64,000 nucleotides of DNA from Flaccisagitta enflata (Eukaryota). The notes under the pieces were generated by a model. It was not told where the DNA came from and did no database searches. It saw only the letters and a list, made by a program, of their open reading frames with translations. Both the position numbers and the translations under genes were made by a program. The stretch covers positions 34,348,001 to 34,412,000 of the forward strand of contig OZ231126.1 of assembly GCA_965153355.1 (NCBI GenBank), read 5' to 3'. Position 1 is the first letter of the stretch; every line of letters begins with the position of its first letter. This document shows, piece by piece, positions 29,576-30,575 of this stretch.

Positions 29576-29593
29576 TTTATTAAGTGTTTTATT
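29576..29593 (-). terminator. two AATAAA polyadenylation signals downstream of the minus-strand gene
   Basis: TTTATT on + at 29576-29581 and 29588-29593, 83-100 nt past the stop codon. Confidence 0.55.
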
Positions 29594-29675
29594 ACAAGAC
29601 GAAAATTGAATTAGATATCAATTCATGATGCTATATAGGAAAGTGATAGAGGCGGAGAGCTTGACATTTTAGTCT

Positions 29676-30259
29676 TTAAAACTTGGCCGGGTCGTAATCG
29701 TTGATTACCTTGGCTATGTTTTTTAAGTAATCCGATTTACTTTTCAAGAACAAGTCATTGCTTGCCTTTGAAATAGAATAGTAGTTGAGTTTTGGCTTGT
29801 CCGCTGAAATCAGCACCATTAACACCATGCTATATCCCTTTTCTAACGGTCCGATGTCCAAAATAGATCCTTGGAATCGTCCACTTGCATCAGTACCCTT
29901 TTGAAGATACATTCGCTTTTCGATATTACCGACTTCTTCTCCTTCTGTTGAAATTTCTCCCTGGACTTCGCTCGTTTCTCTTCCCTCGGCCACGTTAAGA
30001 CCTTCGGAGAATTTTGTTGTAATGGACAAAATGAATTAGTCATAAGTCATGGATGTGAGCTGTGAATTGTCGGTCAACGAAGAATTGAACAGATTGAACG
30101 ATGACTTTAAATTTGTTTCAATTAAAGAATGATTTCATTTGAAAATGATGTAGAAATAGCATATCTAACTGTATCTTGACCTTTTGTCTTCTTTCCTCCA
30201 ATCTTACCCATCAAAACGGCGCCTTCAAAAATGAGGCAAAGGATCCAGAACGATTTCAT
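29676..30259 (-). CDS. two-exon gene join(30259-30208, 30001-29676): 125-aa putative secreted prepropeptide, family unrecognised
   Basis: MKSFWILCLIFEGAVLMG-LNVAEG|RETSEVQGEISTEGEEVGNIEKR|MYLQKGTDASGRFQG...YDPAKF*. Phase-1 206-nt intron with GTAAGA donor, branch-like GACTAAT, no AG between the branch site and the CCGAAG acceptor; open frame; poly(A) signals. Confidence 0.72.
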
Positions 30260-30567
30260 CCTCAAAAAAAAACGTTGTTTTGTTGTGGAACAAGAAAGAT
30301 TCGGCGCTTGTCGTAACGATCCAGATCGTGCAATGAAATCATCCGTAGATATTGGCCGCTATCATGACTGTAAAGGAGAAATCATCAGGACTACATTCAA
30401 AAACTTGCCGTAGTAAAAAGCTTCTTGAGTAAAGTAAATCTTTTTTTAAACGAAAATCTATGGATAAAGTGAGTTGAAGGAAAATATTTTTTTTTTCAAT
30501 TTCCAGCACGGAATCAGAGACCAGATTTCTTCAAACCTTCATTTCACTTAAGTTTTTGACGGGCTGC

Positions 30568-30575
30568 TATTTATA
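30568..30575 (-). promoter_or_regulatory. candidate TATA box TATAAATA
   Basis: About 310 nt upstream of the ATG; a pyrimidine-rich TTTCTCCTTTACAG acceptor at 30368 suggests a 5'-UTR intron. Confidence 0.4.

Follow-up and report, generated by a model that had tools for sequence, protein, structure and literature searches.

In the 64,000-nucleotide stretch of the Flaccisagitta enflata assembly analysed here (GCA_965153355.1, contig OZ231126.1, positions 34,348,001 to 34,412,000 of the forward strand; hereafter the window, with position 1 as its first letter), a small, not yet annotated gene occupies the minus strand from an ATG at 30259 to a TAA at 29678-29676. Comparison with public RNA confirms that this locus is a real two-exon gene. 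The coding part of exon 1 (30259-30208, 52 nt) comprises the ATG, which has an A at position -3, a further 16 codons and one nucleotide, encodes a hydrophobic N-terminus and stops at a joint seen in RNA. It is followed by a phase-1 intron of 206 nt (30207-30002) that runs from GTAAGA to AAG, and by the coding part of exon 2 (30001-29676, including the stop). The intron has a G+C content of 32%, compared with 41.5% for the coding sequence (CDS). When 30259-30208 is joined to 30001-29676 by script, the resulting CDS measures 378 nt, i.e. 125 codons plus TAA, and is open throughout; with the intron left unspliced, a stop comes into frame after 45 codons.

Read without splicing, the locus presents itself as an open reading frame (ORF) of 117 aa at 29676..30029 (minus strand) when translation table 11 is applied. 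This ORF starts with TTG, and the enclosing stop-to-stop frame of exon 2, 119 aa long, has its first ATG only at the Met directly after a Lys-Arg pair; the exon-1 ATG lies ∼230 nt upstream of the table-11 ORF. The initial annotation, made from the bare sequence, had argued that the 117-aa ORF has no true ATG and that a hidden 52-nt exon with a GTAAGA donor, joined to 30001, restores an open 125-residue frame, and spliced RNA contigs bear this out. It had also pointed to a branch-like site with an AG-free stretch ahead of the acceptor, to two AATAAA hexamers downstream and to TATAAATA upstream, all of which are present where they had been placed. The branch-point-like GACTAAT (30041-30035) sits ∼34 nt before the acceptor and is put forward on its resemblance to the consensus only, while the AG-free run covers 57 nt (30060 to 30004) between the preceding AG at 30061 and the acceptor AG at 30003. 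The sequence features listed in that annotation are thus correct to the base.

In one marine metatranscriptome study, four RNA runs were found to contain 26-37% of the sampled words. Contigs of three of these runs (X1, X2 and X3) were compared with positions 29200-31200 of the window, together with a raw-read run (X5) from which 0 reads were placed in this interval and which we do not count as a test. Within the gene, the contigs contain a single joint, recorded as 29999->30206 with a cut of +2 and hence equal to 30001/30208; it skips 206 nt bounded by CT..AC on the plus strand, that is GT..AG on the strand of the gene. The X1 contig bearing this joint is 362 nt long, with 219 nt in exon 2 and 143 nt upstream of the joint, and is collinear with the genome over 30206-30348 with two letters differing. 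Its X3 counterpart (321 nt) carries the same joint with 22 nt on the exon-1 side, and an X2 contig of 475 nt spans 29532-30002, so that coding exon 2 is covered by contigs of all three runs. The intron bins had a depth of 0 in each of the contig runs X1, X2 and X3, and the depth over exon 2 was 4-13. Spliced RNA across 30208/30001, named by the initial annotation as a check, is therefore present. Since both X1 and X3 belong to one study, they count as one independent source for the splice, and the support comes as contigs rather than reads, from RNA runs only, with neither strand nor transcript ends given by the contigs.

On the 5' side of the gene, the X1 contig includes the observed part of the 5' untranslated region (UTR) at 30348-30260, within which there is no in-frame ATG. 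Further upstream, two consecutive in-frame stops, TGA TAG (30364-30359), precede the start codon in the genomic sequence; together with the A at -3 of the main ATG, they would fit translation starting at 30259. TATAAATA (30575-30568), ∼310 nt upstream of the ATG, is a candidate TATA box read from the DNA, and it stays only a candidate since no RNA contig of X1, X2 or X3 lies between 30349 and 30740. At the other end, the X2 contig supplies an observed 3' UTR (29675-29532) with AATAAA at 29593-29588 and 29581-29576; the contig extends to 29532, 44 nt beyond the second hexamer, and a poly(A) site was not seen.

The product computed from the spliced CDS has the layout that had been proposed for it, i.e. 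a hydrophobic N-terminus up to A-E-G, an acidic stretch, a Lys-Arg pair and a Cys-free part of 78 aa. Residues 1-24 begin with M-K, form the most hydrophobic stretch of the protein and end in A-E-G. Their 9-residue Kyte-Doolittle mean is 2.56 at residues 3-11 and stays above 1.3 up to residues 15-23. By hydropathy, residues 19-24 (29999-29982) would be the end of a signal-like segment, with A-E-G at 22-24 as candidate signal-peptidase site; under the -3/-1 rule, with small residues at -3 and -1 in A-E-G, cleavage after G24 or after G18 would be admissible. The phase-1 intron splits codon 18 and thereby falls inside the hydrophobic segment. Phase-1 introns have been reported to be over-represented near the sites where signal peptides are cleaved (PMC1626468).

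The acidic segment, residues 25-47 (29981-29913), holds seven Asp or Glu and three basic residues (net charge -4, isoelectric point 4.4) and ends in I-E-K-R, of which K46-R47 (codons at 29918-29913) is the sole dibasic pair of the product. The remaining residues 48-125 (29912-29679) make up a basic domain of 78 aa and 8.7 kDa with a net charge of +3, an isoelectric point of 9.2 and 0 Cys, in line with the earlier statement that the mature part is not CHH-, defensin- or knottin-like. Its most amphipathic 18-residue window is 102-119, with a hydrophobic moment of 0.57. Run without an alignment on the exon-2 product, AlphaFold 2 (AF2) returned the acidic part entirely as coil (predicted local distance difference test, pLDDT, 32-37), followed by four strands and a helix; run on the 78-aa part alone, it returned three strands and a long helix. 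We used these models only for the boundary between disorder and order. The first predicted strand starts two residues after the Lys-Arg pair, at low confidence, and I-E-K-R is accordingly predicted to sit at the border of coil and first strand. In addition to being dibasic, I-E-K-R satisfies the definition of the spider 'processing quadruplet motif' (PQM), which is given as Arg at -1 plus one or more Glu at -2 to -4 (PMC6832493).

None of the searches placed this protein in a family, as the initial annotation had anticipated: Pfam, the PDB, the ESM Atlas and collections of 5.8 and 1.84 billion proteins yielded no relative beyond near-identical environmental variants. For the exon-2 product, Pfam gave nothing at its cut-off. 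The sole row below it, PF11434 (CHIPS, the staphylococcal chemotaxis-inhibiting protein), aligned residues 28-102 of the exon-2 product with positions 15-89 of a 91-position model, with an E of 0.045 and a score of 14 bits where the cut-off is 25 bits; no PDB sequence or fold backing this match was found, and we treat it as chance. The search of 5.8 billion proteins returned one cluster, consisting of eight 105-aa variants on 20 environmental contigs of at most 1939 nt each. All of these variants start at a GTG two codons into exon 2, and one is identical to the window; this is the start expected of exon 2 if a gene caller for bacteria is run on unspliced DNA. The 125-aa spliced form is absent from this collection, though it falls within the length range searched.

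With HMMER, the collection of 1.84 billion representatives, covering all lengths, gave a 53-aa fragment of the gene and P0004, an Asn-rich protein of 1553 aa with seven near-identical repeats. We rejected P0004 as a relative and regard it as a chance match: each repeat contributes ∼24 bits over 35 residues (pairwise E 0.003-0.008), and the library E of 5.7e-06 arises because seven non-independent, near-identical repeats are summed. By our own arithmetic, a library of 2.4e11 residues should contain many thousands of chance matches of the single-repeat kind, and P0004 also matches an unrelated Pfam family at E 2.3e-08 although none of its stretches passes singly. As a side observation, a 400-aa NCBI protein (P0012) shares the 90% cluster of P0003 with the 53-aa fragment; from its sequence, it looks like a dehydrogenase-type enzyme and a clustering artefact of the collection. 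By sequence, the best PDB match had an E of 0.68. In two ESM Atlas searches, the nearest clusters scored 0.90-0.91 and had 90-97 features in common with the query, no more than chance would give, and there was no usable named match. The fold comparison suggested by the initial annotation for the mature 78 aa likewise assigned no family, with 0 Foldseek matches to the PDB at E ≤ 0.001 and a best value of 0.59 that is meaningless at the confidence of the model (mean pLDDT 54.1). Among JGI metagenome contigs, 417 pattern matches were obtained and 0 confirmed, and no mention of a 12-residue stretch of the product was found in the open-access literature searched. The spliced form is present in RNA libraries, and detectable relatives are absent: the protein collections searched hold near-identical variants only, and no diverged relative.

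As the best explanation overall, we propose that the locus is an expressed two-exon gene for a lineage-restricted protein of 125 residues that is secreted and processed at the Lys-Arg pair, a composite to which we would give about an even chance. Its parts differ in strength, the exon-intron structure and the spliced RNA being shown. From the sequence, residues 1-24 are rather probably a cleavable signal peptide, and a signal peptide at this place would take the product into the secretory pathway; a signal anchor is the less likely alternative for these residues. The suggestion that residues 25-47, the acidic stretch, serve as a propiece and are cut off behind I-E-K-R is made tentatively, and we lean against it for now. 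In the full scenario, the N-terminus would send the product into the endoplasmic reticulum, and the disordered acidic residues 25-47 would keep the basic domain of 78 residues masked; cleavage behind I-E-K-R by a protease of the Kex2/convertase or PQM type would then release a cationic strand-plus-amphipathic-helix protein of 8.7 kDa.

The opposite charges and the amphipathic helix would fit a membrane-active mature part. In antimicrobial peptides, the lytic activity may be neutralised by an acidic prosequence for as long as this is uncleaved (PMC6832493), and the release of such peptides usually involves the loss of an anionic propiece (PMC2866484). Reasoning by this analogy, the basic domain might be an effector in host defence, or one resembling a toxin, with membranes or other organisms as its target, a speculative proposal that we consider doubtful. 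With a secreted and processed product, the phase-1 intron in the hydrophobic part, the A-E-G, the split of charges and the predicted coil/strand boundary all fit. Coding capacity also fits with the ORF being intact in the eight environmental variants on 20 contigs and with differences being rarer in the CDS than in the 3' UTR of the X2 contig.

A number of observations weigh against this explanation, and we discuss them together with the alternatives on which they bear. Some concern the splice and the N-terminus directly. All RNA evidence comes from a single study and in assembled form. An acceptor-like pyrimidine tract with CAG ends at 30368, just upstream of the TGA TAG; were the AG of that TAG (30360-30359) itself an acceptor, the frame would be open to an unseen upstream exon, although use of this acceptor, extending the coding frame upstream, is unlikely. 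The 19-residue hydropathy mean of ∼1.84 at residues 3-21 (Kyte-Doolittle) also fits a membrane anchor. Finally, the Lys-Arg pair is invariant in nine near-identical variants, yet nearly all other residues are invariant as well, which makes the invariance of the pair uninformative on function.

The most serious alternative, to which we allow a minor but substantial share, is that of a young or decaying transcribed ORF, i.e. spliced, polyadenylated RNA with little or no constraint on a protein, be it a gene at the boundary of noise, arisen de novo or an orphan, or be it a long non-coding RNA in which an ORF occurs by chance. It draws on the pattern of variation in the first place. Seven CDS differences are listed in the RNA contigs and, translated by script, 7/7 are nonsynonymous: E40D in the X1 contig, L78->stop in the X2 contig (position 29821, A>T on the plus strand, TTA -> TAA, depth ∼5), and S98R (two changes in one codon), L101V, S105N and D108V in one 95-nt X3 contig (29701-29795) that has seven differences altogether, five of them listed. 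As 79% of the possible exon-2 changes are nonsynonymous (transition bias ignored), the probability of 7/7 is 0.20 under neutrality, 0.003 at an omega of 0.2 and 0.0001 at an omega of 0.1. Seven nonsynonymous differences out of seven, with a stop among them, argue that the product is not under strong purifying selection, and the stop itself could mark a null allele or a copy that is a pseudogene, or come from faulty assembly. An unconstrained ORF would also account for a yield of near-identical variants and one repeat-inflated chance match from 5.8 and 1.84 billion proteins, for the low confidence of the AF2 models (mean pLDDT of 42.8 for the exon-2 product and 54.1 for the 78-aa part), for an ESM Atlas recognition value of 2275, under the 2300 reached by 91/100 proteins of known families, for the small upstream ORF (uORF) that abuts the start codon, and for the solitary position of the gene in repeat-rich DNA, where 0/120 other ORFs reached a Pfam cut-off.

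On the other side, the frame is intact in all eight protein variants from the 20 environmental contigs, the X2 contig differs from the genome at 1/326 nt in the CDS compared with 4/144 nt in the 3' UTR, the start codon lies in a good context, and the ordered layout combined with a phase-1 intron exceeds the structure usual for a chance ORF. Besides, diversifying selection predicts 7/7 nonsynonymous differences equally well. Across the environmental variants, 8/104 sites are polymorphic (T36I, N43I, D55G, P87S, L101M, L103M, D108A and L110I), and when these are taken together with the X3 contig, six of the 13 residues from 98 to 110 vary (98, 101, 103, 105, 108 and 110). Such clustering would fit a patch of hypervariable residues, a paralogue or a lack of constraint in this region, and on the data an unconstrained ORF is not distinguishable from diversifying selection or from diverged paralogues. 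Our most far-reaching version of the proposed secreted protein, namely a new family of Cys-free cationic strand-plus-helix effectors that are inactivated by an acidic propiece, released at I-E-K-R and under diversifying selection in patch 98-110, where the amphipathic helix starts, is offered as speculation, and as a shade less probable than effector activity as such.

A second alternative, which we judge improbable at about the level of the effector proposal, grants translation while denying secretion: the N-terminus would be no signal peptide (or an anchor), or ribosomes would re-initiate at M17 or Met48, giving a small cytosolic protein without propeptide processing. An out-of-frame upstream ATG at 30342 opens the uORF already mentioned (30342-30262 in a script scan, 26 codons), whose TGA (30264-30262) ends 2 nt before the main ATG; the uORF lies within the X1 RNA contig. 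A gap of 2 nt from a uORF stop to an ATG is too close for efficient re-initiation, and in-frame ATGs are available downstream of the main start at codon 17 and codon 48. The presence of E12, which interrupts the hydrophobic core of the N-terminus, and the fact that the supposed mature part starts with Met point in the same direction. However, the context of the upstream ATG is weak (C at -3), as opposed to the A at -3 of the main ATG, and by the scanning rules, most scanning ribosomes should for this reason pass the upstream ATG and reach the main one. A phase-1 intron within the hydrophobic segment, together with A-E-G, would moreover fit a signal peptide (PMC1626468).

As to its surroundings, the gene sits in a unique island of ∼4 kb (roughly 28300-32300) between microsatellites and satellites. 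It is flanked by a 21-nt satellite (27655-27969) and a (GACGGACC)n microsatellite (28208-28282) on one side and by (ACCAACCGACTG)n (32326-32394) and (TTTC)n (32583-33216) microsatellites on the other. Neither tblastn nor blastn found another copy of 29500-30600 or a paralogue in the 64-kb window. There is no recognisable gene in positions 1-64000 besides this one, and microsatellites of the (GA)n, (CA)n, (TTTC)n and (GACGGACC)n types dominate the window along with satellites. This microsatellite load, the splice signals, the AATAAA hexamers and the occurrence in marine metatranscriptomes would suit a planktonic animal. Of the 297 stop-to-stop ORFs of at least 70 aa, 177 were dropped as low-complexity and the 120 with a residue entropy of at least 3.75 were scanned, with 0 Pfam matches above the cut-off; Rfam families and tRNAs in the window numbered 0 and 0. 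A recurring element of ∼100-150 nt, noticed in the ORF translations, adjoins arrays of the (GACGGACC)n type at ∼13900-14500, 17900-18300, 26100-26600 and 47300-47800.

Upstream of the gene, ∼500 nt from its ATG, lies a pair of inverted repeats resembling a miniature inverted-repeat transposable element (MITE), at 30761-30805 and 31158-31216, whose arms of 25-34 nt are 85-92% complementary and ∼350-390 nt apart. A second listed RNA joint falls outside the gene, in the upstream repeat near 31043-31085. There, a stretch of ∼50 nt (31043-31092) attains a summed contig depth of up to 376 with unrelated loose ends on both sides, and it looks like a short repeat common to many transcripts or organisms rather than a part of the gene. 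The very repeat-rich window and the MITE-like repeat could invite the view that the locus is a transposon fragment or an assembly artefact instead of a host gene, yet this is highly improbable given that 29500-30600 has no second copy in the window, that Pfam finds no transposon domain in the gene's ORF and that the same sequence occurs spliced in independent assemblies and again in the 20 environmental contigs.

Returning to the reading of the locus as a gene for a secreted and processed protein, judged from its sequence the layout of the product is that of many prepropeptides, while the sequence belongs to none of the families tested. Precursors of antimicrobial and cytolytic peptides (spider peptides of the cupiennin/latarcin type, aurelin, defensin) resemble it in the order of hydrophobic N-terminus, acidic segment and basic C-terminal part (PMC6832493, PMC2866484), and further likeness lies in the I-E-K-R cleavage-type motif (PQM plus dibasic) and in the amphipathic helix within the basic part. 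They differ in that there is no sequence similarity. Linear cytolytic peptides are also much smaller than the 78-residue basic part with its predicted strands, and defensins and aurelin bear Cys, whereas this basic part is free of it. With convertase-cleaved neuropeptide and hormone precursors, the product shares a signal-like N-terminus and a single Lys-Arg flanked by an acidic spacer. In contrast to them, it has neither a G-K-R amidation signal nor repeated peptide copies, would give a folded domain of 8.7 kDa instead of a short peptide, and shows no Cys pattern of the CHH type. Nor were orthologues of the product found, whereas neuropeptide families are mostly shared across phyla. The product falls among the orphan small secreted animal proteins, with which it has in common that the gene is short and has two exons, that a phase-1 intron comes after a signal-like exon, that homologues are lacking and that amino-acid change is fast or unconstrained. 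The gene is therefore best filed among taxonomically restricted small secreted proteins, a very common class that is defined by lack of information and not by mechanism. It is a lineage-restricted small gene whose product is most likely secreted.

In summary, a first exon of 52 nt and its splice sites were placed to the base from raw sequence, and public RNA agrees with this placement. As for the spliced 125-residue product, the protein collections searched contain only a 105-residue, bacterial-style call of its exon 2. Orphan genes of this sort are numerous in every animal genome, and the finding does not contradict current understanding or open a long-standing question; the value of the locus lies in a correct annotation and in a lead. 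As many toxins, antimicrobial and signalling peptides of little-studied marine animals hide among small orphan secreted proteins, the locus makes a reasonable candidate for peptidomics. If true, the effector reading with its diversifying patch would place the product of this gene, as a host-defence or toxin-like protein, in an evolutionary arms race.

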